Below are positions 2,535 to 44,770 of a DNA stretch of 64,000 nt, one piece after another. The notes below the pieces were generated by a model. The model saw only the letters and a program-made list of their open reading frames with translations, did no database searches and was not told the DNA's origin. The position numbers and the translations under genes were made by a program. How positions within the stretch are numbered: the first letter of the stretch is position 1; each line of letters begins with the position of its first letter. Origin of the DNA: an uncultured bacterium (GTDB lineage Bacteria > Patescibacteriota > Minisyncoccia > Phycocordibacterales > CAWITU01); NCBI GenBank assembly GCA_963839205.1, contig CAWITU010000001.1:4643-68642 (forward strand), read 5' to 3'.

Positions 2535-2540
2535 TACCAA

Positions 2541-2706: not shown

Positions 2707-2743
2707 GTATATTTTAATCTTTAAAACTTAATCAAACTATCAC

Positions 2744-2856: not shown

Positions 2857-2895
2857 GGTTTTACCTACTGTTCCATCCCTTTTATAGTGTTCCAA

Positions 2896-2944
2896 GTGTT
2901 CCGTCTAAACGATTATAAGCCATATTTTTGTTAGAACGGAACAC
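2896..2944. repeat. inverted repeat GTGTTCCGT / ACGGAACAC (31-nt spacer), with an extra direct GTGTTCC copy at 2888
   Basis: Read directly from the sequence. It lies in a ~1-kb ORF-poor AT-rich tract. Confidence 0.6.
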
Positions 2945-3202
2945 CTGATTTCTCTAGATTGTAGGCATTTATAGGCATTTGATTGCCTCGATTTCCCAAA
3001 TCCCAAAAGTCAATCTGACTTAGAAGATACAATGCTTATTATGTGGCTTAAATATTGGGTTTTCTCTTGCATCGCCATTTTCTCAGGGTCCAAAATTTTG
3101 GGTTTGTTTGGCTTTTGATCATGTAATTATATGAATGATACAGACTAATAAGACTCCAAAATATGCTCAAAACAGTTTCATTAGTTTCATAAGTGGAAAA
3201 TG

Positions 3203-3296
3203 ACCCCCTATGCGGTGGGGTTAGTGATACTACTTGATAAGGCCTTGAAAAACCCTTACACTGCTTGAAGCCCTCTCGTCCGAGACTCGGTGGGGG
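3203..3296. other. GC-rich ~94-nt element closed by ACCCCC/GGGGGT helix (possible structured RNA, strand unknown)
   Basis: The terminal 6-bp helix encloses internal hairpins CCGAG-A-CTCGG and AGGCCTT../..AAGCCCT. The surroundings are AT-rich. Confidence 0.25.
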
Positions 3297-3416
3297 CATT
3301 AATTTTGACCCTTGTTCTACAATATGTTTTTTAGGTAGTCCAAATAGGAATAGAACTTTCGAAGTATAGATGATAATATTAATCTCTTAATATTATTAAA
3401 CTCAATTCTTAAATTT

Positions 3417-3776
3417 ATGGATGATAATTCTGTGGTAGCCACGAAGGCTCCAAACGAAATACTTTATGTGATTGCGGCAATGTTGGTGCTACCATGTCTT
3501 AATCTCTTTAACTTTTTTAGTCAAAAATTTATTCTCTCACTAGAAAATCTGGGATATTTTGCAGTCTCAGTAATTGCAATTATTTTATCTTATTTCCTAT
3601 ATAAAGGGTCAAAGATTGCACGAAAGATAATTATTATCTATTACTTATATATAATACTACTTGTATTTCTAAGCATCCCTCTTTTTCTTTGGGACTTGCC
3701 TCAGGGTCTAGTAATTCTTCCGGGGTACCTTTTCTTGGTTTGTTCTCCCAATTTTTTCTTGGGTTGGTTGTATTAG
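3417..3776 (+). CDS. hypothetical integral membrane protein (about 4 TM segments)
   Basis: 119-aa hydrophobic ORF with host-like AT-rich composition. Confidence 0.55.
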   Translation: MDDNSVVATKAPNEILYVIAAMLVLPCLNLFNFFSQKFILSLENLGYFAVSVIAIILSYFLYKGSKIARKIIIIYYLYIILLVFLSIPLFLWDLPQGLVILPGYLFLVCSPNFFLGWLY

Positions 3777-4016
3777 TTGTGTTGTTTTCGAAACGGCTAA
3801 ACAATATTTCAAAATTACTTAGTCCTGTAGTCTACAACATCACCTCCCAACTCTTTCATATACAAAAACTTAAGATAGAGTCCATCCATATATTCCTTAT
3901 TCGATAACACATCAAATACAGTTATAGTAACTGCCTGTCCGGGGCACAAATTAAAACACTAGTATTTTTGGGGTCATTCCTGTAGGGTATTGCTTGAGAA
4001 AGTGAGGATTAGATCT

Positions 4017-5269
4017 ATGTCAATTAACGCATCGAATTATGAATTGGAAGTTATTAACCCTGGGGACCGCGCTTCTGCGCTAGCCCATCAAGTTAACATT
4101 GATAGCTATAAAAACTGCCCTGCCGTTCTGATTGTTCCGCACCAACCCGGAAATTTCCGGGGACCTGTTGGATATATTTGGCGGCCAGAAATTCTCCGGG
4201 CCATGTTGGAAAAACTCCAACTTAGTGATAGTGGTGAAGAAGTTGTAAATTGGGGGATGATTGGCGCCGTCGAGAATGATGGAGCTGGTGGAAAAGGACA
4301 ATTTTTAACCTTAAGCAACAAGCTTGAGGCGTGGCGTAATTTTGGTTGGGAAATTATCACGATGACCGCCGATGATTTAGCGCGCAGCGGTCGTTTCCCA
4401 GCAATCATGAGCAACGAGATTAATGTCCGGAATATCAATGAAAATAACTTTGCTATCATGGAAGCGATTTTTCTTGGTTACGGTGAAGCGCTCCGACAAT
4501 CACATCTGGTTAACATAACAGGTGAAACTGCGGTCATGAAAAATAGCGTTACCGCCTTTTGTGATATCAATTCCAAGGAACAACTTGTCGTGACTTGGGG
4601 AGGGACATGTTTGGGGCTGGCTGATAGTAAAGCCCTAATCACCGGAAAACTCTTCGCCCCGGTCTCGCTGTCATCGGCTTTCTGGAACACGGTTATCGGT
4701 GTAATGGTGGAACCTTTTTCACTGACTTGATTATGGGGAAATGGGGGCCAAACATTCGGCAGATTCTGCAAAATCCAGAAGCGATGAAATTTGTCGATCA
4801 GCTCACTAAACCATCTTTGAGTTACTCCGGGATTATTACCAAACTCGTTGGATGGAAGCCTAATGGTCTTCTCGGTGAGCCAATGGTAAAAATTCACGGC
4901 GCTGCGCATATTACTGGTGGAGGTGTTTGGGGGAAACTCGCGGACATACTTCCGCCTGGCGTCGGAGTTGAACTTCCTGAGATGCCAGAACCACCGGCGG
5001 TACTTCTAGAAGCACAGAAACTTTCAGCAAGACTACAAAATCCGCTAAATGATTTCCGTGCATACGGGGACCTTCATGGAGGTTGTGGAATGTTTGTGAT
5101 TTGCAATCCAGAAGATGCCGACACGGTAATTGCAGAAGTTTCTCGACAAGGTAAGGTTGCTAAAAAAGTTGGTGTCACGACCGAGTCAGAAAATTCTGAG
5201 ATTCGAATCAAATCGCGTTTCATGGAGGGGAGATGGCTTTCGTCGTTAGAAAGTTCGTCAGCAAGTTAA
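4017..5269 (+). CDS. PurM/AIR-synthase-like ATP-binding protein, interrupted by one frameshift near 4655-4665
   Basis: It has VENDGAGGKG, TADDLARSG, NITGETAVM and AAHITGGGVWGKL motifs. The two track ORFs (3990-4730, 4727-5269) join as ..KLFAP|GLAVIGFLEHGYRCNGGTFF.. in another frame. Confidence 0.7.
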
Positions 5270-11137: not shown

Positions 11138-11295
11138 ATCACCAAATATGCTCATTACATTTTGCGAATCTCGCCGTAGCCTAAAGTAGCCAACATCTTG
11201 GCTCCTCCAGGCTATGGCGATAAGGTAGCCCTCTAGCACCAAACTAAAATCGGACATTGTTCAAATGAACACGTCCACTACAGAAAGATAAAACC
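11138..11295 (+). promoter_or_regulatory. ~158-nt structured 5' leader (possible cis-regulatory RNA)
   Basis: A 10-bp stem CGCCGTAGCC/GGCTATGGCG (11172-11219) encloses hairpin AGCCAA-CATC-TTGGCT. A second hairpin is GGAC.TGTTC-AAAT-GAACA.GTCC. GTAGCC occurs three times. Confidence 0.5.
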
Positions 11296-11955
11296 ATGAA
11301 CTCTGAGCTTATGCTCGATGTTGGACAAGCAAACGAATTGAAGTTGGCATTCCGTCGCGAAGGCGACTGGGACAATGAGAGGATTAAGGCACTCAGCGAA
11401 CGCCGTGGCCTCCTCACCCAAGTCCTCGACGTTCTGGAAGGCCGCGCCCAAATCGTTTCCGTGAAAGGCGAAACCCTTTCGTCTACGATTTCCCCCGCGG
11501 GCATCGTGACGATCTCTGTCGATTACTCGCAAACGCTCAAGCAAATGATTGCTGCAGGTCGCTACGACTGGAATAACAGCGATCTCACTGCTAAGCATTT
11601 TCCGATCAAAGGCAAGGGCGTCGTCGAATTCGAAGCCATGCTCGTCGATCCGACTCGGAACATTTCTTCGGAAGACGCGCTCGACCTGATCAACAGGACC
11701 GATACCGGGAATCCGTGGATGCCGGGGCAGACCGAACACCTCTTGGTATATGGGGCCAAATACCCTAATGCTCAGAGGAATAATCCGATCGTCGCTCTCG
11801 GCTCCGTTGGTAAGGTTGTTGGCCGCCGCGTCGTGCCGTGTCTCGTCGAGGTCGGTTCGCGGCGCGGCCTCGGCCTCGGTTGGTGTGTCAGCGTTTGGGA
11901 TTCCAACTCCCGCTTCCTGGCGGTTCGCAAAGTCTCTCGGCCCTCGGCTTCTTGA
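11296..11955 (+). CDS. hypothetical protein (219 aa), compositionally foreign (about 52% GC in first 120 nt)
   Basis: It has GC-rich third codon positions and its own promoter, leader and terminator. The antisense 231-aa ORF is low-complexity and looks artefactual. No family recognised. The C-terminus carries ..RFLAVRK. Confidence 0.65.
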   Translation: MNSELMLDVGQANELKLAFRREGDWDNERIKALSERRGLLTQVLDVLEGRAQIVSVKGETLSSTISPAGIVTISVDYSQTLKQMIAAGRYDWNNSDLTAKHFPIKGKGVVEFEAMLVDPTRNISSEDALDLINRTDTGNPWMPGQTEHLLVYGAKYPNAQRNNPIVALGSVGKVVGRRVVPCLVEVGSRRGLGLGWCVSVWDSNSRFLAVRKVSRPSAS

Positions 11956-11977
11956 TCCATCGGGCTTGTACATGTGC

Positions 11978-12014
11978 CCCCCAATCTGTTTAATTCAGAT
12001 TGGGGGTTATTTTT
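11978..12014 (+). terminator. rho-independent terminator
   Basis: CCCCCAATCTG-TTTAATT-CAGATTGGGGG is followed by TTATTTTT. Confidence 0.8.
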
Positions 12015-12050
12015 ATATTTTTCATGGTAAAATATAAAGACAATTTCTCT

Positions 12051-13805
12051 ATGCCCATTGAAAACGAACAATTAAAAAAATTTATTTTAGACTCAGGCTT
12101 AATTAGCCGTAAAGAATTTGAGGAAGCCGAAGAAGAGGCTCTTAAAAAACAAGAGGTTCTTGCTGATTATCTGGTAAGCCGTGGAAAAATTAGTGAAGAT
12201 GACATGCGTAGAATTCGAGCCTATGTTCTCGGTATTCCTTTTGTTGATTTGAAAGATCAGAAAGTTCCTTTTGAAATTCTATCTCTCATTCCTGAGCCAA
12301 TTGCTCGAAAGAACAATATTATTTCGTATAAAAAGAATGCTGATTCGTTGGAGGTGGCTATGCTTGATATTAATGATCTTTCTGCTATCGATTTCGTTAA
12401 AAAGAAAGTAGGGCTCAAAATCCTACCAAGATTGACCTCGTCAGAATCGATTAAGTCATCACTTCTTCAATATCAAAAAAGCCTTAAGGCTGATTTTGGT
12501 GACATCATCCAGAAGGAGGCAGCTTCAATTCGTTCTATTAATGGAGACCAGCCTGGGGAAATCTCAAGTGAAAAGGATTTAAAGAAAATGGCCGAAGATT
12601 TGCCTGTAGTGCGCATTGTCGACACCCTATTAAAACATGCTATTCTTCAAAATGCTTCTGACATTCATATTGAGCCTCAGGAAAATGAGGTTGTCGTTCG
12701 CTATCGCATCGATGGAATTCTTCACGATGCGATGATTCTGCCAAAAGCGGTGGCCAGTGGAATCACCGCGCGTATTAAAGTTCTTTCAAGTTTGAAGCTG
12801 GATGAAAAAAGATTGCCACAAGACGGCAGATTTAAAATTGAACTTGATAACGAGGGAATTGCTTTTCGTGTATCAATGATGCCGACATATTTTGGAGAGA
12901 AGACAGTTATGCGTTTACTTAAAGAAAATTCCACTGGTTTTACACTTGAGTCACTTGGTTATCATGGCGAAGCGCTTGAAAGAATTCATGAGGCAAGCCG
13001 ACTTACGACCGGAATGCTTTTGGCTAGCGGGCCAACTGGTTCTGGAAAGACGACTACTTTATACAGTCTATTAGATGTTTTGAATACTCCAAATGTAAAT
13101 ATTTCGACAATTGAAGACCCAATTGAATATCAAATGAAGAGAATTAATCAGACTCAGGTTAAGCCAGAGATTGGTTTTAGTTTTTCATCCGGCCTTCGTT
13201 CTTTGGTTCGTCAGGATCCAGACATTATTATGGTTGGTGAAATTAGAGATAATGAAACAGCTTCGCTTGCGGTGAATGCGGCATTAACAGGACATTTGGT
13301 TCTTTCAACTCTTCACACTAATTCTGCAGCCGGTGCGATTCCTCGTCTTATGGATATGAAAGTTGAGCCATTTCTTCTTGTTTCAACATTAAATGTCATT
13401 ATTGGCCAGCGTTTGATTAGACAATTAGCTAAGAATAAGGAAAAGTATTTCTTGAATAAGAGTGAACTTGAACTAATCTCCAAAAAAGTTGATATAGGGA
13501 GAGTTTTAACATTTCTCAAATCAGAAAAAATTGTTGATGAGAAAACAACTTGGAAAGATATTCCATTTTATAAACCAAAAGCTTCAGAAGATTCAGAGGA
13601 TGGTTATAAGGGACGAGTCGGTATTCACGAAGTATTGAAAGTTACTCCAACAATTCGAAATTTGATTATCAAGGGTGCCACATCGGATGAAATTGAACAG
13701 CAGGCCAAAAGTGAGGGGATGCTTACAATGATTGAAGATGGAATTTTCAAAGCCGCACAAGGTATTACAACAATTGAGGAAGTTCTAAGAGTTATTTCAG
13801 AATAA
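12051..13805 (+). CDS. pilB: type IV pilus / type II secretion assembly ATPase (GspE/PilB family)
   Basis: It has Walker A GPTGSGKTTT, the Asp box, Walker B DPDIIMVGEIRD and the His box LTGHLVLSTLHTN. Confidence 0.9.
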   Translation: MPIENEQLKKFILDSGLISRKEFEEAEEEALKKQEVLADYLVSRGKISEDDMRRIRAYVLGIPFVDLKDQKVPFEILSLIPEPIARKNNIISYKKNADSLEVAMLDINDLSAIDFVKKKVGLKILPRLTSSESIKSSLLQYQKSLKADFGDIIQKEAASIRSINGDQPGEISSEKDLKKMAEDLPVVRIVDTLLKHAILQNASDIHIEPQENEVVVRYRIDGILHDAMILPKAVASGITARIKVLSSLKLDEKRLPQDGRFKIELDNEGIAFRVSMMPTYFGEKTVMRLLKENSTGFTLESLGYHGEALERIHEASRLTTGMLLASGPTGSGKTTTLYSLLDVLNTPNVNISTIEDPIEYQMKRINQTQVKPEIGFSFSSGLRSLVRQDPDIIMVGEIRDNETASLAVNAALTGHLVLSTLHTNSAAGAIPRLMDMKVEPFLLVSTLNVIIGQRLIRQLAKNKEKYFLNKSELELISKKVDIGRVLTFLKSEKIVDEKTTWKDIPFYKPKASEDSEDGYKGRVGIHEVLKVTPTIRNLIIKGATSDEIEQQAKSEGMLTMIEDGIFKAAQGITTIEEVLRVISE

Positions 13806-13810
13806 TAAAT

Positions 13811-15016
13811 ATGAAATTTAAAGTTGAAGTTAAAAATGCAGAGGGGCAAGCTATGAATAAAATCATTGATGTATCTGATAGATTTGCTCTTTTCCGCCAA
13901 CTAAAAAAAGACGGTGATACTTTGATTAATTTTCAGGAAGAGAAAAAATCAATCATTGCTAGATTAAACTTTTCATTTGGAGGAATTTCGACTGATGAAA
14001 AAATAAACTTTGCGGCTAATCTGGGAGCGATGTTGGAGTCGGGTCTCACTCTTTCAAGAGCCCTTTCTGTTATTGAGCGACAATCGTCTAATAAAAAATT
14101 TAAGTCGATTGTCGCTTCAATTAACGACGCAATCAGTAAGGGCTCAAATCTTCATGATGCCCTAAAAATTTATCCAGACATCTTTGCTTCTCTGTTTATT
14201 TCGATGGTTCGCGTCGGCGAAGAGTCTGGAAGTTTGGCTAATTCTTTAAAAGCCGTGGCCCTCCAGATGGAAAAAGCTCATACTTTAACTAAGAAAGTTC
14301 GAGGGGCAATGATTTATCCAGGAGTGGTTTTCTCAGTGATGGTCGTTGTCGGTATTCTTCTTTTTACTTTTGTAGTACCAAGTCTTCTTGATACATTTAA
14401 ACAATTAAATGCCCCACTTCCTTTCAGTACCGAAATCATTATCGCTTTAAGTAATTTTTTCCAAAATGATTACGCTATTGGAATTCCGGCAATTCTCATC
14501 GTTATTGGTTTAATTTATTATTTTTCGAGAACGAGGATTGGGAGAAGATTTTTTGATTGGGTGTTTCTCCATTTGCCAACAATTGGGAATTTAGTTAAAG
14601 AAACCAACTCTGCTCGAACTGCGAGGACATTATCATCCCTTCTTACTTCCGGAGTTGATATGGTCTTAGCTGTTTCTATAACTGAAGAAGTTCTACAAAA
14701 TTCTTACTACAAAAATATTTTGAAAGAAGTTGGCAAAAGAGTCGAAAAAGGCGAGCCGATGGCTTCAATTTTTTTAAGTAATGAAAAACTTTATCCAGCT
14801 TTTGTATCAGAAATGATTAGTGTTGGAGAGGAGACGGGTAAACTTTCTGAAATGCTTCTTCGGGTGGCGACATATTATGAAGCTGAAGTGGATGAATCTA
14901 CCAAAGATATCTCTACGATTATTGAACCAGTACTCATGGTTGTAATAGGTTGCTGTGTCGGTTTTTTTGCGGTATCTATGATTACTCCACTTTATACGGT
15001 GATGAATAATATTTAG
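13811..15016 (+). CDS. pilC: type IV pilus / T2SS platform protein (GspF/PilC family)
   Basis: Two GspF-type repeats are present (LSRALSVIERQ.., MISVGEETGKLSEMLLRVATYYE), with polytopic TM segments. Confidence 0.9.
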   Translation: MKFKVEVKNAEGQAMNKIIDVSDRFALFRQLKKDGDTLINFQEEKKSIIARLNFSFGGISTDEKINFAANLGAMLESGLTLSRALSVIERQSSNKKFKSIVASINDAISKGSNLHDALKIYPDIFASLFISMVRVGEESGSLANSLKAVALQMEKAHTLTKKVRGAMIYPGVVFSVMVVVGILLFTFVVPSLLDTFKQLNAPLPFSTEIIIALSNFFQNDYAIGIPAILIVIGLIYYFSRTRIGRRFFDWVFLHLPTIGNLVKETNSARTARTLSSLLTSGVDMVLAVSITEEVLQNSYYKNILKEVGKRVEKGEPMASIFLSNEKLYPAFVSEMISVGEETGKLSEMLLRVATYYEAEVDESTKDISTIIEPVLMVVIGCCVGFFAVSMITPLYTVMNNI

Positions 15017-15019
15017 TGT

Positions 15020-15487
15020 ATGAAGGATCTCTTTGAAAGAAAAGGATTCACCTTGATTGAGACCTTGGCGGTACTTTTTATTCTAGCAATCTTATCTACC
15101 ATAGTTTTTTATTCCTTTTCAAATTTTGAATCCGGTCAGATTTTGGGGAAGGAAACTAATTCGGTTCTCTCTTATCTTGAAAGAGCCAGATCAGAAAGTT
15201 TATCTTCTTTAAATTCTTCACCATACGGGATCTATTTTAATGCGACTTCGACAACCATATTTATGGGAGCTTCATATTCTGCAGGCTCTTCACCCAATGA
15301 AGTTTATACGCTTAATCCATCGGTAACAATATCTTCAATTTCGCTAACTGGTGGTGTTCAACAATTATATTTTAATCAGGTTACTGGAATTCCAAGTGCT
15401 ACTGGCACCATAACACTTTCTCTTTCTGAGGCGACTAGTACTAAAACTGTTACAATATATGAAACCGGGCTTTTCCAATCTAATTAA
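15020..15487 (+). CDS. prepilin-type N-terminal cleavage/methylation domain protein (pseudopilin)
   Basis: N-terminus KGFTLIETLAVLFILAIL. Confidence 0.8.
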   Translation: MKDLFERKGFTLIETLAVLFILAILSTIVFYSFSNFESGQILGKETNSVLSYLERARSESLSSLNSSPYGIYFNATSTTIFMGASYSAGSSPNEVYTLNPSVTISSISLTGGVQQLYFNQVTGIPSATGTITLSLSEATSTKTVTIYETGLFQSN

Positions 15488-15488
15488 T

Positions 15489-15977
15489 ATGAAAAATAAA
15501 GGATTTAGTCTTGTGGAAGTTTTAATTGGGGCGGGGATTATTCTAATGGCTACCACTAGTGTCTTATCTGCCTACAGTCTTTATCTTCGCGCGGCCGTTT
15601 CAAATACTTCTAACATTCAAGCCTCGCTTCTTTCGGAAGAAGGAATTGAAGCTGTCAAATCAATTCGTGATGGTTCATGGACCTCAAATATTGTTCCACT
15701 TTCTTTAAATACAAATTATTATCTTGCTTGGAATTCGTCTTCTTCACTCTGGACTCTCTCAACCACAGCATCATCAATTGATAATACCTTTTTTAGAACG
15801 GTAGTTTTTTCAAACGCTTATAGAGATTCAAGTTCAAATCTGACCGCCTCAACTACATTTGGGGCGACTATTGATAGTGGAACTCGAGAAATTACAGCCA
15901 ATGTTTCTTGGTTGGATAGAGGGGCGACAAGCACTAGGTCAATCTCAACCTATATCAGTAATATCTTCAATAACTAA
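15489..15977 (+). CDS. prepilin-type N-terminal domain protein (pseudopilin)
   Basis: MKNKGFSLVEVLIGAGIILMA. I place the start at 15489 rather than the track's 15459. Confidence 0.75.
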   Translation: MKNKGFSLVEVLIGAGIILMATTSVLSAYSLYLRAAVSNTSNIQASLLSEEGIEAVKSIRDGSWTSNIVPLSLNTNYYLAWNSSSSLWTLSTTASSIDNTFFRTVVFSNAYRDSSSNLTASTTFGATIDSGTREITANVSWLDRGATSTRSISTYISNIFNN

Positions 15978-15979
15978 AG

Positions 15980-16501
15980 ATGAAATTTATTTCTAAAAAA
16001 AATAGAGGAATATCACTAGTTGAAATGATTATGTACATTGCCCTTTTGGCAGTTATTACTGTTGTCGTCATTGATATGATGGTTTCTATTTCTGTCTCTT
16101 ATAGAACTGTAAAAACCACACGGGATATGGAAAATTCGGCCATGACCTCCATGGGTAGAATGGAAACCGAAATACGCGATGCTTCCAGTATTGATATTCC
16201 AAATAGCATTTTCAATACGACATCAAGTGTATTAAGTTTGAATGTTGAAAATGGGACAAGTACAGCAACCAGTACTATTCGATTTTATTTAACTGGAGGA
16301 CAGATTGAAATTGATCAAAATAGTGCTTCTTCTGGCCCTCTAACACTTCCATCGGTCACCGTCTCTTCTTTGATATTTAGAAATATTTCGACCGGTTATT
16401 CATCTGGGGTAAAAATTGAATTAACAATGACAGCTACAACTAGTGCGAATTTGATGACAAAGAAATTCTATGACACCGCTATCATAAGGAATTCATATTA
16501 G
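15980..16501 (+). CDS. prepilin-type N-terminal domain protein (pseudopilin)
   Basis: RGISLVEMIMYIALLAVITVVV N-terminal segment. Confidence 0.7.
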   Translation: MKFISKKNRGISLVEMIMYIALLAVITVVVIDMMVSISVSYRTVKTTRDMENSAMTSMGRMETEIRDASSIDIPNSIFNTTSSVLSLNVENGTSTATSTIRFYLTGGQIEIDQNSASSGPLTLPSVTVSSLIFRNISTGYSSGVKIELTMTATTSANLMTKKFYDTAIIRNSY

Positions 16502-16505
16502 AAGA

Positions 16506-17643
16506 ATGAAAAATAATTTTAAAAACAAAAAAAGAGGACAAGTCATCATGATAGTTGTTGTCTTCTTTTTACTCAGTTCAATCTTGATTGTCATGAGTAT
16601 AATTTCGCCACTTTTAAGACATATTGAGGCAACGCATGAATTTATCAGAGACAAACAAAGTTATTTTACAGCGGAAGCTTTGAATGAAGATGTTTTATAC
16701 CGCTTAAATAATAGTTTACCTGTCCCGAACAGTGTGATTTTGTCTTTAGTTCAAAGCGTGGCAACGGCTACTATATCAAATCTCTCAACCGGGTTAGATC
16801 AAATTAAGACTCTAGGAAGTTTTGATTTATTGTCCAGGAATATTACTAGCGTCAATTCTAAATGGAGCTATTGGAAATTTTAGTTATGGAATTCAAGCAG
16901 GAAGTGGAGGATTTAATATTAGTGGAGGCTCAACTGTAAATGGAGATATTTATTCAGTTGGTGATACTAAGGCAAGTGGAGGAGGCACAATTACGGGCAC
17001 AGCATATTGTAATATGAGTAGTGATAGTAGTGTTTCTTGTAATACCTCAAGAAGTTCTTCTGTGCTCAGCCTTCCTTTTTCAACAAGCAGTATTACTTCT
17101 ATCCAAAATCAAGCAACAGCAGGGACAACTTATACGGGAAACTATAATGTTGGTTACGCTGGAGCAACAATTGGCCCTGAAAAAATTACTGGTAATCTGG
17201 TTGTAAATGGCGGAGGGACGTTAACGTTGTCAGGTGTGGTTTGGGTTCAAGGTTCGCTTTCGGTTAGTAATGGTGGGCAAATTAAGTTGGCTTCTTCTTA
17301 CGGAAGTTCAAGTGGCGTGATTCTAGCTAACGGTCTTGTAAGCTTAAGTGGTGGGAGTTTAAGTGGTTCTAGTCAAAGTGGAAGTTATTTAACGATTATA
17401 ACAACAGCGACCGGAACGAATGCTTTAGGTGTTACTGGTGGAGCTGGAGCGGTAATTCTCGTTGCTCAAAATGGTACAGCAACCCTTTCTGGTGGGGTAA
17501 ATGCTAATCAAGTTACAGCTCAGACAATTTCAATTTCTGGTGGAAGTACGATTACATACTCTAACGGGCTCGCAAATTTAATCGTTTCAGATGGCCCGAC
17601 TAGCTTTTGGAATGTGAACAGTTGGTCGGAGACTTCAAATTAG
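16506..17643 (+). CDS. pilus-associated protein: N-terminal TM anchor plus Gly/Ser-rich beta-helix-like region; probably one gene with a frameshift near 16822-16880
   Basis: The 16506 ORF has the TM segment RGQVIMIVVVFFLLSSILIVMSII. The 16822 ORF lacks any signal and continues with GGSTVNGDIYS.., VVNGGGTLTLSG.. repeats. The frames overlap by 60 nt. Confidence 0.5.
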
Positions 17644-27471: not shown

Positions 27472-27714
27472 TTAAATTAACTTAGCTTTTTTGAGGGTAG
27501 CGTAAGCACCATTTTTGTTGATGGTCTTGATAGCACGAGTGGAAATAGTGAGAGTGATATATTTTTTGAGTTCAGGAACGTAGATTCTCTTCTTCTGAAG
27601 ATTAGGATATTTTCTGACCATTCCAGTTGGGTTGAATTGGGTAGCACGAGTTCGGTTAGAGTAACCTCCACCCATTCGTGAGCCCTTTTTGGTTATCGGA
27701 CAGATTTTCGCCAT
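27472..27714 (-). CDS. rpmB: 50S ribosomal protein L28
   Basis: MAKICPITKKGSRMGGGYSNRTRATQFNP... Confidence 0.9.
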   Translation of the reverse strand: MAKICPITKKGSRMGGGYSNRTRATQFNPTGMVRKYPNLQKKRIYVPELKKYITLTISTRAIKTINKNGAYATLKKAKLI

Positions 27715-27723
27715 AGTGGAGCT

Positions 27724-28356
27724 ATGCTATCATACGCAGTAATGAGCGTCAATTTCATATTTGAAATAGCCATATTAATCATCTCAGTCATTATTCATGA
27801 GGTTTCTCATGGTGTGGCCGCGGATCTTCAAGGTGACCCAACTGCCAGACTGGAAGGGAGGCTCACTTTAAATCCAATAAAACATATTGATCCACTAGGT
27901 TCAATTGTTATTCCAACGCTCTCATATTTCTTCGGAGGATTTATTGTCGGTTGGGCTAAGCCAGTTCCTTTTAATCCATACAATTTAAGGAACCAAAGAT
28001 GGGGAGAGGCGATTGTGGCTGTTGCGGGCCCTCTTTCTAATGTTTGTATCGCACTAGTATTTGGGTTAGCGATAAGATTTCTTCCCGTCGGTGTTCTGTC
28101 ACCATCACTCATTTCAATCCTGACTTTAATTGTCTTTATCAATTTGATATTAGCTATTTTCAATCTCGTACCAATTGCCCCACTTGATGGCTCAAAAATT
28201 CTTTTTAGTATCTTGCCCTATAGCGCGCGGGGAATTAGAACCTTTATGGAGCAATACTCACTATTTCTGGTCTTAATCTTCATCTTCTTCCTTTGGAAAT
28301 TCATATTGCCAATTGTTTATATCCTCTTCGGTTTGATTACAGGAATGGCATTTTAG
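27724..28356 (+). CDS. site-2 protease family (M50) membrane metalloprotease
   Basis: HEVSHG zinc motif within a polytopic protein, and a later LVPIAPLDGSK motif. Confidence 0.8.
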   Translation: MLSYAVMSVNFIFEIAILIISVIIHEVSHGVAADLQGDPTARLEGRLTLNPIKHIDPLGSIVIPTLSYFFGGFIVGWAKPVPFNPYNLRNQRWGEAIVAVAGPLSNVCIALVFGLAIRFLPVGVLSPSLISILTLIVFINLILAIFNLVPIAPLDGSKILFSILPYSARGIRTFMEQYSLFLVLIFIFFLWKFILPIVYILFGLITGMAF

Positions 28357-28401
28357 GTACCCTTCTTGCAATATAGATTGGCTTATAGTACATTACCTCT
28401 T

Positions 28402-28421
28402 ACGCGAATCTCGCGTTTTTT
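28402..28421 (+). promoter_or_regulatory. 5' leader hairpin plus U-tract upstream of rpsL
   Basis: ACGCGA-ATC-TCGCGT is followed by TTTTT, about 10 nt downstream of a TATAGT -10-like box (28384-28389). Confidence 0.45.
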
Positions 28422-28451
28422 CATTATCTTTCGAATCACTCAAGATAAAAG

Positions 28452-28868
28452 ATGCCCACAATAAACCAATTAGTTAAACACAAAAGAACTAAAACCGCCC
28501 GAAAATCAAAAGCGGTTGCTTTGACTCGTGGTTTTAATGCTTTGAAAAATCGTCCATCTTACTTCATCTCTCCTTTTAAAAGAGGCGTTTGTACTAAAGT
28601 TACTACCAAGACTCCAAAGAAACCAAACTCAGCTATCCGAAAAATCGCTAGAGTCCGTCTTACAAACGGTCTAGAAGTCACAGCTTATATCCCTGGTATT
28701 GGGCACAATCTTCAAGAACATGCTGTGGTGTTGCTAAGAGGTGGTCGTGTTAAAGACGTTGGTCTTAGATACACAATCGTTCGAGGTATGCTCGACGCTG
28801 GTGGTGTTGAAGGTAGAAGACAGTCGCGTTCACAATACGGTGCTAAAAGACCTAAAGATAAGAAATAA
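28452..28868 (+). CDS. rpsL: 30S ribosomal protein S12
   Basis: MPTINQLVK.., [17 protein letters not shown]. Confidence 0.97.
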
Positions 28869-28873
28869 TTAAT

Positions 28874-29344
28874 ATGCGTAGAAAAGTCCGAAATCGAAAT
28901 ATGGTAGAAGCTGATCTCGTTTTTAATTCCGAGAAGGTTTCTAAATTCATCAACTATGTTATGGGAAGTGGTAAGAAAAATACTGCTCGAAAAATCGTCT
29001 ATGGAGCTTTTGATGCTTTGAAGGAAAAAGCTAAGACTGAAAATCCAATTGAACTCTTTGAAACTGCTTTGAAAAACACATCCCCAGCTATGGAAGTTCG
29101 TTCAAGACGAGTTGGAGGTGCTAACTATCAGGTTCCTCGTGAAGTTCGCCCAGAAAGACGAAACTATTTGTCCATGAAATGGATTATTGAAGCCGCTAGA
29201 GCTAAAAAGGGCCAGCCAATGCATCTTAAATTAGCTGATGAAATCATTGCCGCTTCAAAAAATGAAGGCGAGGCAGTTAAGAAGCGTGAAAATGTTCACA
29301 AAATGGCTGAAGCCAACAAGGCTTTTGCTCACTTCGCTTGGTAA
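28874..29344 (+). CDS. rpsG: 30S ribosomal protein S7
   Basis: GKKNTARKIVY.., VRSRRVGGANYQVP, AFAHFAW. Confidence 0.97.
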   Translation: MRRKVRNRNMVEADLVFNSEKVSKFINYVMGSGKKNTARKIVYGAFDALKEKAKTENPIELFETALKNTSPAMEVRSRRVGGANYQVPREVRPERRNYLSMKWIIEAARAKKGQPMHLKLADEIIAASKNEGEAVKKRENVHKMAEANKAFAHFAW

Positions 29345-29409
29345 GCTGAAGGCTTATCCCGAGCTTTGTCGAGGGATTATTTTAAATTAATTAGTAATTA
29401 AAGTTATAC

Positions 29410-31559
29410 ATGAATAGAGACTACCCATTAGATAGAGTAAGAAATTTTGGTATCATTGCTCACATTGACGCTGGAAAGACTACAACTTCCGAGCGTATTT
29501 TGTATTACACTGGTATGAGTCACAAAATCGGTGAAGTGCATGATGGAAATACCGTAACTGACTGGATGGAACAAGAAAGAGAGAGAGGTATCACAATTAC
29601 TTCTGCCGCTATTACTTGTTTTTGGAATCCAACATACATGGGTGCGGATGTTTCAAAAAAACATCGTTTTAATATTATTGATACCCCAGGTCACATGGAC
29701 TTTACTGCTGAAGTAAAAAGATCTCTTCGAGTTCTCGACGGTGCAGTCGTTGTTTTTGACGGTGTTGCCGGTGTAGAACCTCAATCAGAAACAAACTGGA
29801 GATAAGCTGATGATGGAAATGTTCCAAGAATTTGTTTTATAAATAAATTGGACAGAATGGGTGCTAGTTTTGAAAGATCATTCCAATCAATTCTTGATCG
29901 TTTGAATAAAAATGCAGTCAGAATGCAGATTCCAATGGGAGCAGAAGAAAATTTTGAAGGAGTAATTGATCTTCTTAAAATGAAAGCTTATCTATTTTGA
30001 AGGCGAAATGGGTATTAAGATTCGTGAAGAAGAAATTCCTGAAGAATATAAAGCGGAAGCTAAGAAATATCGAGACATGCTTAGTTGAGAAAATTGTTGA
30101 ACATGATGATGTTCTCATGCAGGCTATCTTGAAGGTAGGAGCCAACAATTGATCAGCTTAAAGCAACTCTTCGAAAGGCAACACTCGCAAGTAAAACTTA
30201 TTCCAGTATTTACTGGTTCAGCTCTCAAAAATAAAGGAGTTCAGCTCGTACTTGATGCTGTTGTTGAATATCTTCCAAGTCCACTTAGATATTCCACCAG
30301 TAAACGGAATTGATCCAAATACAGGTGAGGAGATTATTCAGACATGCATCAGATACAGAGCCATTTTCTGCACTTGCTTTCAAACTTCAAACAGATCCAT
30401 TCGTAGGTCAGCTAACATTCTTCAGAGTTTATTCTGGAACAATTGAGTCAGGAACTTATATTTACAATTCAACAACAGGAGACAAAGAAAGATTGGGAAG
30501 AATTGTTCGCCTTCAAGCTGATAAAAGAGAAGAAGTACAAAAAGTATTTGCTGGAGAAATTGCTGCTGCCGTTGGACTTAAAGACCGCAAAAACTTCTCA
30601 TACTTTTTGTGATGAAACAAATCCAATCATTCTTGACCCAATCAAATTCGTAGACCCAGTTATGTCTCTTCGTATTGAACCAAAGACAAAAGCTGATCAG
30701 GAAAAAATGGGTATGGCACTTAAGAAACTTTCTGATGAAGATCCAACATTTAAAATCAGTTCAAACTCTGAAACAGGGGAGACAATTATTTCTGGTATGG
30801 GTGAGCTTCACCTTGAAATTATGGTTGATCGTATGAAGAGAGAATTTTCTGTTGATGCAAATGTCGGAAAGCCACAAGTAGCTTACCGAGAAACAATTAC
30901 TGGTACAGCCGAAGCGGAACACAAATACATCAAGCAATCTGGAGGTAAGGGTCAGTACGGTCACGTTAAAATTACTATCAGTCCAATGAAACCTCTTGTT
31001 GAAGGAGAGAAAATTCCTAAGAATGTTAAGCGTTCTGAATACTTTGAATTTATCGATTCGATTAAAGGAGGTGCTATTCCTCAAGAATTTATTCCAGCCG
31101 TTGAAAAGGGTGTGCGTGAAGCAACAGAAAGAGGAATTGTTGCAGGATTTAAAATGGTTAATGTTTCTTGTGAACTTACTTACGGTTCATATCACGATGT
31201 GGACTCATCAGAAATTGCATACAAGATTGCCGCTTCTCAAGCTTTCCAGGATGCTGCTAAAAGAGCTCGACCAGTTATTCTTGAACCAATCATGAAAGTT
31301 GAAGTTACTGTTCCAGAAAAATTCTTCGGTGATATTACTGGAAATCTTTCATCCAAGAGAGCCACGATTGAAGGATTTGAAGATAAACCAGGCGGAGTTA
31401 AGCTCATTAGAGCTAAAGTGCCTCTTTCTGAAATGTTCGGATATACCACAACTCTTAGATCAATGACTGAAGGTAGAGGAAATGCACCGATGGAATTTTC
31501 ATCATTACGAAATCGTTCCACCAAACGTAGAAAAAACTATTGTTGAAGCCAGAAAATAG
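29410..31559 (+). pseudogene. fusA: elongation factor G, disrupted by one in-frame TAA (29806-29808, at the conserved Gln of ..WRQA..) and at least 9 single-base indels
   Basis: The G domain is intact ([14 protein letters not shown]). Hand translation can then be followed across all three frames: ..KAY|[30 protein letters not shown]|[14 protein letters not shown]|YLEG|[20 protein letters not shown]|[30 protein letters not shown]|[18 protein letters not shown]|[17 protein letters not shown]|[11 protein letters not shown].. A last shift near 31497 restores ..[18 protein letters not shown]. Confidence 0.9.
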
Positions 31560-31621
31560 CAATCTCTATTGTTATTTAGCCTATAAAGCGTAGTCTTATA
31601 TACGAAAGGAGGTGATTCAAA

Positions 31622-32203
31622 ATGGATTCACCTGTTGATATTTCTAATAAGAAAATTCTTTTCATTGGAGAAAAGAAGGAAGAATGTGAGTTGATTGAGA
31701 AGCAATTTGGTCAGGCAGTCTTTGCCGTCAGACATTTTGCTGGTAATGAATTTGTGAAGAGGCCGAGTGATTATCTGATAATTGATGCAAGCCGTAGACT
31801 CCAAATTGTCTACCCAGCCAAAAATGGGAAAAAGAAGGACGAAAGGGTAACTGCATTCAAAAAAACTTTCAGACACCAGGTTCACAACGCTTTGCTTAAT
31901 CGCATGGCGAAAAAAGTTGCTATCATAGTCGAGCACGGGGAATATTGGGCAACTGTCTTGGTTGCAGATCGACGTTTTCCAAAGTTGCGGTCAAAATTAG
32001 TTAGTTGCTGTTCGTATTATTACAAGGGACCGCAAGATGAAAAGGAGGAACACCTTAAGTTCGTAAATTCGTTTGAAAATGGTTGGACGGTTAAGGTCGG
32101 AAACCTTTTCTCTGAAAAGTTACCTCGCAGACTGACAATTAGGGCTGAAATCGATTACGGTCTAATTATCAGTGAAATAGAAAAGGAAAAAACAATGAAA
32201 TAG
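31622..32203 (+). CDS. hypothetical protein (193 aa) inserted between fusA and tuf
   Basis: It has the strong RBS AAGGAGGTGA 7 nt upstream of the ATG and its own terminator. No family recognised. Confidence 0.6.
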   Translation: MDSPVDISNKKILFIGEKKEECELIEKQFGQAVFAVRHFAGNEFVKRPSDYLIIDASRRLQIVYPAKNGKKKDERVTAFKKTFRHQVHNALLNRMAKKVAIIVEHGEYWATVLVADRRFPKLRSKLVSCCSYYYKGPQDEKEEHLKFVNSFENGWTVKVGNLFSEKLPRRLTIRAEIDYGLIISEIEKEKTMK

Positions 32204-32237: not shown

Positions 32238-32250
32238 AGTTGTGAAATAC

Positions 32251-33099
32251 TTACCCAACTGTTTTTGGGAACGAGCCCAAAACGTGAACTTGGCCTTGGG
32301 TAACAGACATAATGTTGGCGATAATTTTTCTGCCAACGTCGTCGTCTTGATGGCAGTCGAACTCAAGGTAGTTAGCGTAGGTTCCGGACCGACCCAACGA
32401 TACTGACTCGATCGAATAGAGGTTCGATCCGAGATCGGCAATCAGGTTTTAGAATATCCTAAGTGCACCGACTCTATCTGGGCAACCGACACGCAAGGGC
32501 GGTTTAATCTCGCCCAGTAACCTTTGATGGTGATTATTTGAAACAATATGAAAACGAGTTCGGTTATCCATATCGTCGTGAATGTCAGGCAAAACCTCAA
32601 GCGTCTCACCAAAAATGTTCGAGGCCGTTATTGAGGCAATTGCTCCCCAACTCGGATCGTTCTTTTCAATGATTTCTCGTACTGCTTTGGTATTGCTTTG
32701 TGATGCCACTCTGACGCTGATACCTAACTTTGTGAGCGTTTCGGCACATTGCCCAAGTGATTTGGTATGAGATACAACCTTTAACCCTTCGGTTTTAGTA
32801 ACACCTGGCAAGGTAAGGAGGCATTGTCTGATCGGTATTTCAATTTCACCGACCACTGTTAGAAAATCCGTCTTGGTTTTGAGCCAGTATCCCTTAATGA
32901 CCTCAGGGACGTAACCATCAATCGAATTCTCGATAGGCACAACCCCCAAAAAATCACCGTTACCCCTTTCGGCCTTATGTAGAACATCCAAGTTGTCTTC
33001 GCAGGCATCAAAACGTGCATGACCGTCACCATTTTGACAAACCAGCGTTTCAGCTGCTTCGAAGCCAAATGAGCCACGTTCAAGTGATAAATATTTCAT
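32251..33099 (-). pseudogene. prephenate dehydratase-like protein (PDT + ACT domains) with in-frame TAA at 32449-32451
   Basis: PDT-domain motifs are present (VVPIENSIDGYV, TRFHIV). After the stop, the same frame continues for 65 codons as a typical ACT domain (..DRVGALRIF*NLIADLGSNLYSIES..YLEFDCHQDD..VHVLGSFP). Confidence 0.7.
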
Positions 33100-36578: not shown

Positions 36579-37422
36579 ATGAAAAGCTATAAACCAACAT
36601 CAAAATCACGCCGATCAATGACCACGATTTCATTCCGTGGAATTGTTACAGCCGATAAGCCACATAAATCTCTAACAGGAGGATTCAAAAGATCTGTTGG
36701 TAGAAACCATCACGGCAGAATTACTGTTCGACACAAAGGAGGTGGTCACAAGAGACTTTACCGAGATGTCGATTTTGTTTATGACAAAAAAGATATTCCA
36801 GCCAAGATTTTGACAGTTGAATATGACCCAAACAGATCTGGTTTTATTTCACTAGTTGCATATAAAGATGGAGAGAAGAGATACGTTCTTCTTCCAAAGA
36901 CAGTTAAGGTTGGAGATAGCTTCCTTAGTTTCTGAAAAAGCAGAAGTTAAAGTTGGAAACAGACTTCCACTTAGAAATATTCCAGTTGGTGCTTTTGTAT
37001 ACAATGTTGAAATCAAACCAGGTGCTGGTGCTAGAATGGCGCGCGCCGCAGGTAACTTCGCTGAAATTGTTGCTCAAGACGGAGGCTATACTCAAATCAA
37101 GATGCCTTCAACAGAAATCAGAAAAATTATTGATACCTCTTGGGCATCCATCGGTGAAGTTTCAAAAGATGAAAACCGACTTCAGAATTACGGTAAGGCT
37201 GGAAAGAGTCGTTGGAAAGGTATTAGACCTACAGTTAGAGGTACTGCGATGAACCCAGTAGACCACCCACACGGAGGAGGAGAAGGACGACAGGGACGAG
37301 GACGAAGACGAGCCGTATCTATGTGGGGTAAGCCTACAGGAAAGGGTCAGAAGTCACGCCGATCAAAGAAATACTCAAATAAATTCATTATCTCAAGGCG
37401 AAAAGTGGGGAAGAATAAATAA
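36579..37422 (+). CDS. rplB: 50S ribosomal protein L2, one frameshift near 36915-36935
   Basis: The 36579 ORF ends ..VKVGDSFLSF*. The L2 sequence continues in another frame as VSEKAEVKVGNRLPLRNIPVG..GTAMNPVDHPHGGGEG. Confidence 0.93.
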
Positions 37423-37435: not shown

Positions 37436-37463
37436 CAGCTGGCGTTGCGCCAGCTGTTTTTTT
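37436..37463 (+). terminator. rho-independent terminator directly after rplB
   Basis: CAGCTGGCG-TTG-CGCCAGCTG is followed by TTTTTTT. Confidence 0.8.
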
Positions 37464-37473
37464 GTGATATAAT
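37445..37473 (+). promoter_or_regulatory. promoter TTGCGC-17 nt-TGaTATAAT overlapping the rplB terminator
   Basis: TTGCGC lies at 37445-37450 and TATAAT at 37468-37473, preceded by TG. Confidence 0.55.
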
Positions 37474-37498
37474 ACTGAAAAACAGAAAGGACTACATT

Positions 37499-37996
37499 AT
37501 GGCAAATAATTTGCCCAAACATCCGAGTCGGGAACAAGCCGCCGCAGATTATGCCGCAGATCTTTGGAATAAAAGAAAGAAAACTCTTATCAACGTGCCA
37601 CAAGAAGTGCACGACAATGCCTTCAAGGCCTGTGTTCGTACAGCCACTGAACATTGGGGCGAAAATCGATTTGACGATGGTCGTGGTTTGAAATTCTATC
37701 GCACCGTCTACCGGTTGCTATCAAAGCGGTCGAACGATAAGCAGGCGAGGCTTAGGGAATCAACCTATCTTCCTCCTTCGCCGACGGCTGTCGTCAAAGA
37801 AGTTACTGCTTCAGTTTCGAAGGTTTCTCAACCGAAGACAGGCCAGCAGGTCATCCCTGCGGTCTTGTCCCAGGTTCGGAAATCTAAGGTCGAAAAGCCT
37901 CAAAAACGTTATCGGGAAGCGATTAATAAACCCGATATGGTTCAGGAGTTTCTTTCTCTATTTCCCGAAGTCCCTCGTTTGCATTGGGATTTTTAA
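37499..37996 (+). CDS. hypothetical protein (165 aa) inserted between rplB and rpsS, higher GC than flanks
   Basis: MANNLPKHPSREQAAADYAADLW.. It has the RBS AGAAAGGA, its own promoter and its own terminator. No family recognised. Confidence 0.6.
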   Translation: MANNLPKHPSREQAAADYAADLWNKRKKTLINVPQEVHDNAFKACVRTATEHWGENRFDDGRGLKFYRTVYRLLSKRSNDKQARLRESTYLPPSPTAVVKEVTASVSKVSQPKTGQQVIPAVLSQVRKSKVEKPQKRYREAINKPDMVQEFLSLFPEVPRLHWDF

Positions 37997-38862: not shown

Positions 38863-39520
38863 ATGTCACACACCGTACATCCATATTCACATAGATTGGG
38901 AATCATCCGCGACTGGAAAAGCCGTTGGTTTGGTGTTAACCAGAAATATCGAGATAATTTAAAGGGTGATATTCTCATTAGACAATTTTTGGAGAAAAAA
39001 CTTCGTGGTCAATACATTAGTTCTATTGAATTTGAAAGAAGTCAGAAGACTTTTAGAATAATTATCAAAACTTCGACGACCTGGCGTTATTATCGGCAGA
39101 AGTGGAGAAGGTGCCGTAAAACTTCGAAATGAAATTTTGAAAGAAATTCATCGCTTAGGACTAAACCAAAGAGAAGAACTCAAAGTAGATGTTGAGGAAG
39201 TTAGATCACCAGAAGCCAATGCCGCTATTGTTGCTCAAATGGTTGCTGAAGGACTTGAAAAGCGTTTGCCATTCCGAAGAGTTATGAAGCAGACGGTTGA
39301 TAAGGTTATGGCTAATAGGGAAGTTAAGGGAGTTAGAATTTTCCTTGGAGGACGACTCGGTGGTGCTGAAATGGCCCGCAGTGAAGACCTTAAGAAAGGA
39401 CGAGTTCCACTTCAGACTTTCCGTGCCGACATTGATTTTGCCAAATACGAAGCTAATATGACCTACGGTAATATTGGTATTAAGATTTGGATTTATAAGG
39501 GAGAGATTTTTGATAAATAA
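38863..39520 (+). CDS. rpsC: 30S ribosomal protein S3, one frameshift near 39072-39080
   Basis: HPYSHRLGIIRDWKSRWF.. then ..IIIKTS|RPGVIIGRSGEGAVKLRNEILKEI.. continues in the frame of the 39137 ORF (GGRLGGAEMAR). Confidence 0.93.
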
Positions 39521-39525: not shown

Positions 39526-39948
39526 ATGCTTCTTCCTAAAAAAGTTAAATTTCGAAAATGGCAGACTGGCAGACGAAACCCAAAGAGGGTAGGTCAATCT
39601 GATCGTGGATCTACGCTTGCCTTCGGTTCTTATGGTCTTAAAGCTACTTCGTCTCATCGCATCAAATCAAATCAGTTAGAGGCTGCTAGAAAGGCAATGG
39701 CGAGACTTGTAAGTAAGACTGGTAAGATGTGGATTAGAATTTTCCCGGATAGACCTTTCACTGCAAAGCCACCAGAAGTTAAGCTTGGTAAAGGAAAAGG
39801 AGATCCACAGGGTTATTGCATTGAAGTCTGGCCAGGACGCATCATTTTTGAAGTTGATGGTATTGAAAGAGCTGTTGCGCTCGAAGCTTTGAGAAAGGCT
39901 GGAACCAAACTTCCAATTAAGACAAAGATTATCACTCGTACTCATTAA
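39526..39948 (+). CDS. rplP: 50S ribosomal protein L16
   Basis: MLLPKKVKFRK.., RIFPDRPFTAKP, KGKGDP. Confidence 0.97.
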   Translation: MLLPKKVKFRKWQTGRRNPKRVGQSDRGSTLAFGSYGLKATSSHRIKSNQLEAARKAMARLVSKTGKMWIRIFPDRPFTAKPPEVKLGKGKGDPQGYCIEVWPGRIIFEVDGIERAVALEALRKAGTKLPIKTKIITRTH

Positions 39949-39953
39949 TTATC

Positions 39954-40220
39954 ATGGCTAAAACTACAGAAAAAAAACAAATAGCAGAAATAAAGAAAGC
40001 TAGAACTCTCAAGGGAGTTGTGGTGTCTGACAAGATGAAAGACACAGCTGTTGTTTTGGTACAAAACTACGTTAAGCATCCAAAGTACGAAAAATTCATG
40101 AAGAAGAGCAAGAAATACAAAGCTCATAATCCAGGAAATACAGTAAAAATTGGAGACCTAGTTGTTATTGCTGAATGCCGACCAATTTCAAAAGATAAAC
40201 ATTTCGTAATCGTTAAATAA
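39954..40220 (+). CDS. rpsQ: 30S ribosomal protein S17
   Basis: LKGVVVSDKMKDTAVVLV..HPKYEKF..YKAHN. It lies only 5 nt after rplP, so there is no room for rpmC. Confidence 0.95.
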   Translation: MAKTTEKKQIAEIKKARTLKGVVVSDKMKDTAVVLVQNYVKHPKYEKFMKKSKKYKAHNPGNTVKIGDLVVIAECRPISKDKHFVIVK

Positions 40221-41486: not shown

Positions 41487-41499
41487 TCAATAATGAAAA

Positions 41500-41528
41500 G
41501 GGCCTCCGCCTTAGGCGGAGGCCCTTTT
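41500..41528 (+). terminator. rho-independent terminator GGGCCTCCGCC-TTA-GGCGGAGGCCC
   Basis: A perfect 11-bp stem is followed by TTTT. Confidence 0.85.
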
Positions 41529-41549
41529 CATATTTGCTATAATAGTGCC

Positions 41550-42074
41550 ATGAGAAAATTTGAAGCAATTGTAACCATCGTTTTAATAGTTATTGTCTTA
41601 GTTGCGGCCCTATTTTGGGAACACCGCAGTGTAAATGCCCCAGTTATGCCAATTGTTAAAGGTTTAACTTTGTCTGATATTCAAAATACCTCTTATGAGG
41701 GAACCGAACTTATAAATGGTAGTTCAACCCAAGATTTCTTTCATTATGATTTAAGTAGTTATGCTTTAGGAGACTTGAATAGAGATGGTCTTCAGGATGC
41801 AGCTGTAGTTGTTACTGTAACCGGCGCCGATTCATCCGATTTCCTATACGTAGTAATGGATTTGAATGGTATTGCTTCATCCACTCCTGTTTCTATCCCC
41901 ATGAGACAAGGAGAGTCCTATGCTAGAAATATAAAAGTAGATTCAATCAGTAACGGTATTATTACTCTAGACCTTGATATTGCTTCACCTACCGATCCTC
42001 ATTGTTGCCCTTCAATCCAAGCAACAAGGGAATACGCATTTGTCGGAAATACCCTCAGGGAAGTAATCCAATAG
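41550..42074 (+). CDS. membrane-anchored hypothetical protein inserted between rplE and rpsN (leaderless start)
   Basis: TGcTATAAT (41535-41543) lies 6 nt before the ATG. It has the N-terminal TM segment AIVTIVLIVIVLVAALF, a DLNRDGLQD Ca-binding/FG-GAP-like motif and host-like GC. Confidence 0.6.
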   Translation: MRKFEAIVTIVLIVIVLVAALFWEHRSVNAPVMPIVKGLTLSDIQNTSYEGTELINGSSTQDFFHYDLSSYALGDLNRDGLQDAAVVVTVTGADSSDFLYVVMDLNGIASSTPVSIPMRQGESYARNIKVDSISNGIITLDLDIASPTDPHCCPSIQATREYAFVGNTLREVIQ

Positions 42075-43671: not shown

Positions 43672-44325
43672 ATGCAAGACGGTACAACAATACAACCAAA
43701 TACAGAGCCTGAAAAAGTAGTTGAAGCTCCAGCTACTCCTTCAATTAATCCAGCCTCACCCTTCGTCCCTATTCCTCCAGAAAGAAGACAACTTTCAAAG
43801 GAAAAAGGTTTTGCTGGACGCGACCGAAGGAATGATAGAAAGCCAAGACGAGAGCCTCGTGCAAAACCAGAGTTCGACCAAAAGATTATCGACATTCGCC
43901 GTGTGGCGAGAGTGGTTTCTGGAGGACGAAGATTTAGTTTTGCTGTTTCTCTAGTTGCTGGGAATAGAAAGGGAATGGTTGGAGTTGGAATCGGTAAGGC
44001 GGGAGACACATCACTCGCAATTGAAAAAGCCTTCCGAAATGCTAAGAAGAAAATGATTAAAATCAATCTCAAAGAAAACATGGGTATTCCTCATGAGGTT
44101 GAAGCTAAGTATTCAAGTGCTGTGGTTATGATGATGCCAGCAAGAGGAAAGGGGATTGTTGCCGGTTCTTCTGTTAAGGATGTATTAGAACTTGCTGGAG
44201 TCCACGACGTTGTTGCCAAACTTAGATCTGGTAGTAAGAATCGTTTGAATAATGCCAAGGTTGCTGTTAAGGCTCTGTCGCTTCTTAGAAGCAAAGCAAA
44301 ACCTGTAGTTCAGGCTCAAGTTTAA
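43672..44325 (+). CDS. rpsE: 30S ribosomal protein S5 with ~65-aa N-terminal extension
   Basis: The core reads IDIRRVARVVSGGRRFSF..VGVGIGKA... rplO follows after 4 nt, so there is no L30 gene. Confidence 0.94.
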   Translation: MQDGTTIQPNTEPEKVVEAPATPSINPASPFVPIPPERRQLSKEKGFAGRDRRNDRKPRREPRAKPEFDQKIIDIRRVARVVSGGRRFSFAVSLVAGNRKGMVGVGIGKAGDTSLAIEKAFRNAKKKMIKINLKENMGIPHEVEAKYSSAVVMMMPARGKGIVAGSSVKDVLELAGVHDVVAKLRSGSKNRLNNAKVAVKALSLLRSKAKPVVQAQV

Positions 44326-44329
44326 TACC

Positions 44330-44770
44330 ATGCAAACACACACACTAAAAAGAGTTCATAAGAACAAAACTAGCCAGCAAGTCGGACGAGGTGGTACTCG
44401 TGGTAAAACTTCTGGACGTGGTACCAAAGGACAGAATGCTCGATCTGGTCGCAAGAAAAGACCAGAACTTAGAGACATCATCAAGAAACTTCCAAAACTT
44501 AGAGGACGTGGAAAAAACAGTAATGTTGGTATTCAAACAAAACCAATTGCTTTGAACATTGGAGCTATTTCAAAAGCCTTCTCTGCTAATGACACTGTTA
44601 CTACAAAGACTCTTCTCGAACGAGGTCTCATTACTTCTTATAAAGGCCGAGTACCTCAAGTGAAGATTTTGTCGAATGGAGAAGTAGACAAGGTTCTCAT
44701 AATTTCTGGTTGCACAATCTCAAAGGTAGCTTTGGCTAAACTTGAGAAAGCTGGCGGCCAAGTTAAGTAA
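44330..44770 (+). CDS. rplO: 50S ribosomal protein L15
   Basis: VGRGGTRGKTSGRGTKGQNARSG. Confidence 0.95.
   Translation: MQTHTLKRVHKNKTSQQVGRGGTRGKTSGRGTKGQNARSGRKKRPELRDIIKKLPKLRGRGKNSNVGIQTKPIALNIGAISKAFSANDTVTTKTLLERGLITSYKGRVPQVKILSNGEVDKVLIISGCTISKVALAKLEKAGGQVK

Follow-up and report, generated by a model that had tools for sequence, protein, structure and literature searches.

The window (the whole stretch of DNA that was analysed, 64 kb in length) derives from an uncultured member of the Paceibacteria (Parcubacteria, CPR) and has a GC content of 38%. Its genes include rpmB, a gene for an M50 protease, rpsL, rpsG, fusA, tuf and the S10/spc ribosomal protein operons. The fusA gene, which encodes EF-G, is the str-operon copy and begins at 29410, after rpsL (28452-28868) and rpsG (28874-29344). 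In Pfam scans of about 55 ORFs, the domains were covered over their full length in roughly 45 genes (rpsL, rpsG and tuf among them), which shows that the contig is mostly well corrected. The terminators of the 49 intact genes of the window were TAA in 35 cases, TAG in 13 and TGA in only one (61225-62565).

The following feature gives the extent of the gene under study:

29410-31559, + strand: fusA (EF-G), in which ten single-base corrections are needed to give a 714-aa protein

The EF-G frame starts at 29410, can be traced across all three reading frames and ends with the TAG codon at 31557-31559. It is not a single uninterrupted frame, as the deposited sequence contains ten interruptions. After repair, the 714-aa product covers 100% of the 714-aa Paceibacteria homologues with 86-88% identity, and those homologues possess all five EF-G Pfam domains (PF00009, PF03144/PF22042, PF14492, PF03764 and PF00679). 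The 64 kb of the window contain no EF-G paralogue.

The interval between fusA and tuf is occupied by a 193-aa ORF of unknown function (31622-32203) and a pheA-like gene in opposite orientation, composed of PDT (prephenate dehydratase) and ACT; in many relatives, tuf lies 150-600 nt after fusA. Two other extra ORFs were noted, namely a 183-aa ORF of unknown function between rplB and rpsS (37445-37996) and a 193-aa ORF with a weak LppP/LprE match between rplE and rpsN (41493-42074), and all three sit within otherwise conserved operons. The rpmC gene (L29) is absent between rplP and rpsQ (39948-39954, a gap of 5 nt), and rpmD (L30) is absent between rpsE and rplO (44325-44330). Loss of L30 is known for CPR.

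An intact type IV pilus-like cluster is located at 12000-16900, with a PilB-like ATPase (T2SSE + MshEN), a PilC-like T2SSF protein and at least three prepilin-type N-methylation proteins. The region 11278-11994 has a GC content of 50% against the 38% background and holds overlapping long ORFs of 231 aa (- strand) and 219 aa (+ strand), the former without a Pfam match. Only short ORFs are present in 2.5 kb at about 860-3400, where the GC content is locally higher (0.46 at 1-2 kb). A search for a second error-dense patch in this low-coding region (800-3450), by Pfam scans in six frames, gave no match, and neither Rfam families nor tRNA were found there; likewise, no tRNA genes and no Rfam families at the gathering threshold were detected in the whole 64 kb.

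Positions and spectrum of the lesions

The lesions were placed by frameshift-aware dynamic programming of window positions 29380-31600 against five intact 714-aa EF-G homologues. The same ten lesions were obtained from all five alignments: one in-frame TAA, seven 1-nt insertions and two 1-nt deletions. Thus, all nine indels are 1 nt long, with an insertion to deletion ratio of seven to two. The features are as follows:

29803-30588, + strand: lesion-dense patch, with the TAA, six +1 insertions and two -1 deletions
29803-29805, + strand: in-frame TAA, where 120 of 120 homologues have tyrosine (WRYAD)
About 29992, 30075-30087, 30187-30197, 30284-30289, 30336-30343 and 30577-30588, + strand: +1 insertions in the patch, alignment placement
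About 29992, 30075, 30188, 30283-30287, 30334-30336 and 30576-30583, + strand: the same +1 insertions, profile-guided placement
About 30120-30124 and 30137-30138, + strand: -1 deletions in the patch
31496-31502, + strand: a lone +1 insertion towards the 3' end of fusA, after which a stretch of 13 residues resumes in the next frame

A sequence-only reading of this DNA had described most of this picture. Its count of about ten inactivating lesions in an EF-G that can be followed through all three frames was reproduced, its coordinates agree with the alignments to about 12 nt, and the nine lesions that it set within about 800 bp fall within 776 nt (29803-30580). It had also attributed the stop codon to a CAA-to-TAA change at the glutamine of a conserved WRQA motif, and in this point it has to be corrected. 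The WRQA motif is known from E. coli and Thermus, whereas the lineage studied here has tyrosine at that position, so the stop arose from TAT or TAC (TAY to TAA) and not from CAA.

The insertion sites are ambiguous by a few bases. Profile-guided placement puts several of them slightly upstream of the visible frame change (e.g., C29992, A30075 and C30188), and deletion of these three bases brings back the family consensus (AYYFEGE, RA.LVEK and TLEVKLIP, respectively). The best placement of at least three insertions, the same ones, is outside homopolymer runs. Two of the +1 sites stand directly before an in-frame TGA (TTT TGA and AGT TGA), loosely like the +1 site of prfB, and the other five have no common motif. 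The density of homopolymer runs in the patch is not elevated, with no A or T run of six or more, its GC content is normal, and no second copy of it occurs elsewhere in the window. As the patch is unrepeated and ordinary in GC and homopolymers, sequence composition does not explain the clustering.

The clustering itself is pronounced. The presence of nine of the ten lesions within 776 nt has a probability of about 0.01 under uniform placement in the gene, and the lesion-free run of 920 nt in fusA one of about 0.04 under the same assumption. The indel density in the patch is about 1.0 per 100 nt.

Lesions were also found in four other genes of the window:

36921-36924, + strand: +1 frameshift in rplB (36579-37422), with the N-terminal and C-terminal domains of L2 in different frames
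39074-39078 (about 39076), + strand: +1 frameshift in rpsC (38863-39520), with the KH domain split between frames (2-34 and 35-77)
32449-32451, - strand: in-frame TAA in the pheA-like gene (about 32250-33099), with the ACT domain match spanning the stop
4655-4665 (about 4660), + strand: -1 frameshift in the AIR-synthase-like gene (3963-5269), with AIRS and AIRS_C in different frames

The last of these genes is related to AIR synthase and is PurM/ThiL/HypE-like. For rpsC, the comparison with the relatives L085 and L086, which show 82% DNA identity and encode an intact 218-aa S3, revealed that the window is exactly one base longer; the extra base lies in a non-homopolymer context (cttcGAcgacc in the window, cttc-Tcgacc in L085/L086). 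As L2 and S3 are indispensable and single-copy, no living cell could have genuine frameshifts in both of them, as this one contig would imply.

The claim that damage is far denser in fusA than elsewhere thus stands as regards density, with ten lesions in 2.15 kb against about four in about 62 kb, and the neighbouring rpsL, rpsG and tuf are clean, as had been stated. It does not stand in so far as it implied a lesion-free remainder, as rplB, rpsC, the pheA-like gene and the AIR-synthase-like gene carry one lesion each. The location of 10 of the 14 lesions of the 64-kb window in a single 2.15-kb gene has a binomial P of about 1e-12. Within the window, fusA stands out by the density of its lesions and not by their kind.

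Constraint on the repaired EF-G and comparison with relatives

The repaired EF-G was compared with the family at conserved positions. It departs from the family once at columns that do not vary among the other 120 sequences (family mean 0.3, maximum 4), and three times at columns that are at least 97% conserved (family mean 1.45, maximum 9). The ratio of identity in the patch (aa 125-395) to identity in the rest of the protein is 0.959, compared with 0.952 +/- 0.017 among the homologues. Four residues in the patch are absent from all homologues, and three of these are at lesion sites; at residues 195 and 261, at least, the consensus residue returns if another base is removed. As the novel residues lie mostly at lesion sites and the identity of the patch is normal, the eight indels are not accompanied by an excess of missense change. 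Judged by these alignments, the repaired EF-G shows no sign of gene decay.

In mutation accumulation experiments with E. coli and Bacillus, base substitutions are about ten times as frequent as indels. With such a ratio, eight neutral indels in 776 nt should bring tens of substitutions, mostly non-synonymous, and fewer than about nine extra replacements are compatible with the data. Moreover, a deletion bias and longer deletions in bacterial pseudogenes were reportedly described by Mira, Ochman and Moran in 2001; the indel spectrum of fusA, insertion-biased and with all indels of 1 nt, points in the opposite direction.

A single open fusA frame was present in all 77 of the related genomes checked. 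An intron or intein in the fusA of relatives was considered for 19 loci, in which matches extended over 2.6-3.2 kb and contained in-frame stops, and it was rejected, as tblastn revealed at these loci a normal full-length fusA that had been joined to the G domain of the downstream tuf in one match.

Two public Paceibacteria assemblies of relatives contain pervasive single-base frameshifts, which fragment most, if not all, of their str/S10 genes, and appear to be unpolished long-read consensus. In L083 (ENA ERZ1714337, contig_2555, 643 kb), fusA has 27 single-base indels, and every neighbouring gene is broken (S12, S7, EF-Tu and L4). In L084 (JGI 3300059803), fusA has 7 indels, and the surrounding genes are damaged in a similar way. 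The indel density of the fusA of L083, 1.3 per 100 nt, is comparable to that of the patch, which is confined to 0.8 kb.

Public data for the strain itself were also searched. The window belongs to an 84,831-bp contig, and its proteins deposited there (NCBI/ENA) include a truncated 131-aa EF-G fragment and an 89-aa S3 fragment. A Logan contig found via RpsL (L082, run ERR10755936) is 100% identical to window positions 27698-29146 and stops at 29146, and this identity means that reads of the strain are public in ERR10755936. An exact 40-mer of fusA had no match in genome_contigs or metagenome_contigs. No independent contig was retrieved via the exact RpsG, Tuf or 193-aa ORF sequences or via the truncated EF-G, L2, S3 and PheA products, and the 89-aa and 288-aa pieces of the patch, used as queries, gave no fragment near 100% identity. 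The cluster mates of the 131-aa EF-G fragment were not close relatives.

Origin of the lesions

The best explanation of these results is that the fusA lesions are not a biological feature. On the sequence evidence, they very probably represent an uncorrected consensus-error patch in an error-prone, otherwise polished assembly. The ten lesions would then be errors in the deposited sequence and not mutations of the organism, and the actual gene would be an ordinary, intact and functional EF-G. The consensus of the contig would be good nearly throughout, with a low background of single-base errors, and about 0.8 kb within fusA would have as many errors per length as a consensus of noisy reads that was never polished. 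Most likely, consensus building or polishing failed locally, as might happen where coverage drops, strains are mixed or reads map ambiguously.

Three observations agree with such an origin: the lesions include single-base indels, whose repair yields a normally conserved protein; lesions of the same kind affect rplB and rpsC, indispensable single-copy genes of the same contig; and the error density of the patch is comparable to that of an apparently uncorrected assembly. Spurious pseudogenes are known to arise from the platform, the assembler and the coverage (PMC11017572), and gene-fragmenting indels have been described in long-read assemblies (PMC12007338). The sequencing platform and the reason why this stretch escaped correction are points that we infer. 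With its ordinary homopolymer content and several insertions outside runs, the patch resembles the errors of recent nanopore or HiFi data less closely, and sequencing errors could hardly account for eight indels in 776 nt if the source assembly was built from short reads alone.

The sequence-only reading had left a choice between a trouble spot of the assembly and a fusA that is truly a pseudogene, with a second EF-G copy in its place. Every indirect test that was made favours the former. The latter, according to which the str-operon fusA is a genuine recent pseudogene and translation depends on a second EF-G elsewhere in the genome, is improbable, even if it is the best of the alternatives. 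Ten disabling lesions in one gene are the classic look of a pseudogene, EF-G paralogues occur in some bacterial phyla (PMC3150367), and our view of the genome is limited to 64 kb, so that a second copy is possible. However, no excess of amino-acid change was found anywhere in the gene, patch included, where tens of substitutions would be expected beside the indels, and the 1-nt, insertion-biased indels show neither the deletion bias nor the varied lengths of pseudogene decay. Moreover, the lesions are clustered instead of being spread over the gene, the frameshifted rplB and rpsC cannot be dispensable, the window holds no EF-G paralogue, and this copy is intact in every relative checked.

It is slightly less probable still that the patch is a chimeric or mis-merged consensus of at least two co-occurring strains, or a contig join, instead of a simple low-coverage region. 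The damage is sharply bounded in an otherwise clean contig, and EF-G is 85-90% identical in many related Paceibacteria, which makes cross-mapping in a metagenome conceivable. On the other hand, tuf and rpsL are more conserved and yet clean, and the window holds no second copy of the patch. A mixture of strains is in any case a sub-type of the artefact explanation and inseparable from it without reads.

A little lower again we place the chance that the lesions are real and that an indel-specific burst, e.g., error-prone repair synthesis over about 0.8 kb, killed fusA very recently. Another EF-G would then have to sustain the cell, unless the DNA belonged to a subpopulation that was non-viable or a relic. 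That fusA is nevertheless expressed, be it by programmed ribosomal frameshifting, transcriptional slippage or stop-codon reassignment, has a negligible probability, since, in spite of the two prfB-like sites and the rarity of TGA as a terminator, it would require both +1 and -1 shifts within tens of bases, at sites mostly lacking a common motif or long A or T runs and across a TAA that is the normal terminator in the window, in a gene without a shift in any of the 77 relatives checked.

With a consensus-error patch as the preferred explanation, the main value of the locus is that of a quality flag, as the deposited record annotates fragments of EF-G and S3 that are truncated. These would distort the counting of pseudogenes, estimates of completeness, phylogenies of EF-G or ribosomal proteins and any claim that CPR bacteria have lost genes. 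Genuine lesions would mean that an episymbiont with a minimal genome has lost its canonical EF-G, which would be remarkable, and the evidence does not support it.

Comparison with known systems

In gene order, the locus resembles the canonical str operon rpsL-rpsG-fusA-tuf: rpsL, rpsG and fusA follow one another, and EF-G is full length after repair. It differs in that the frame is interrupted ten times and tuf is split off from fusA by the 193-aa ORF and the pheA-like gene.

With decaying pseudogenes such as those of Mycobacterium leprae, Rickettsia and Sodalis, fusA shares the combination of several frameshifts with a premature stop in a single gene. Unlike in them, constraint is not relaxed in fusA, and its indels are neither biased towards deletions nor longer than one base; its lesions are concentrated in one third of the gene, and essential ribosomal neighbours are damaged too.

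The spurious pseudogenes of long-read or low-coverage assemblies are similar in several respects: conserved genes are split by single-base indels and occasional false stops, repair yields a perfectly conserved gene, essential genes are affected, and the density of errors is that of L083 and L084. Two differences are worth noting. The errors are uneven here, with nine in one 0.8-kb stretch and most of the 64 kb clean, and several insertions lie outside homopolymers, whereas the literature stresses homopolymer-linked errors.
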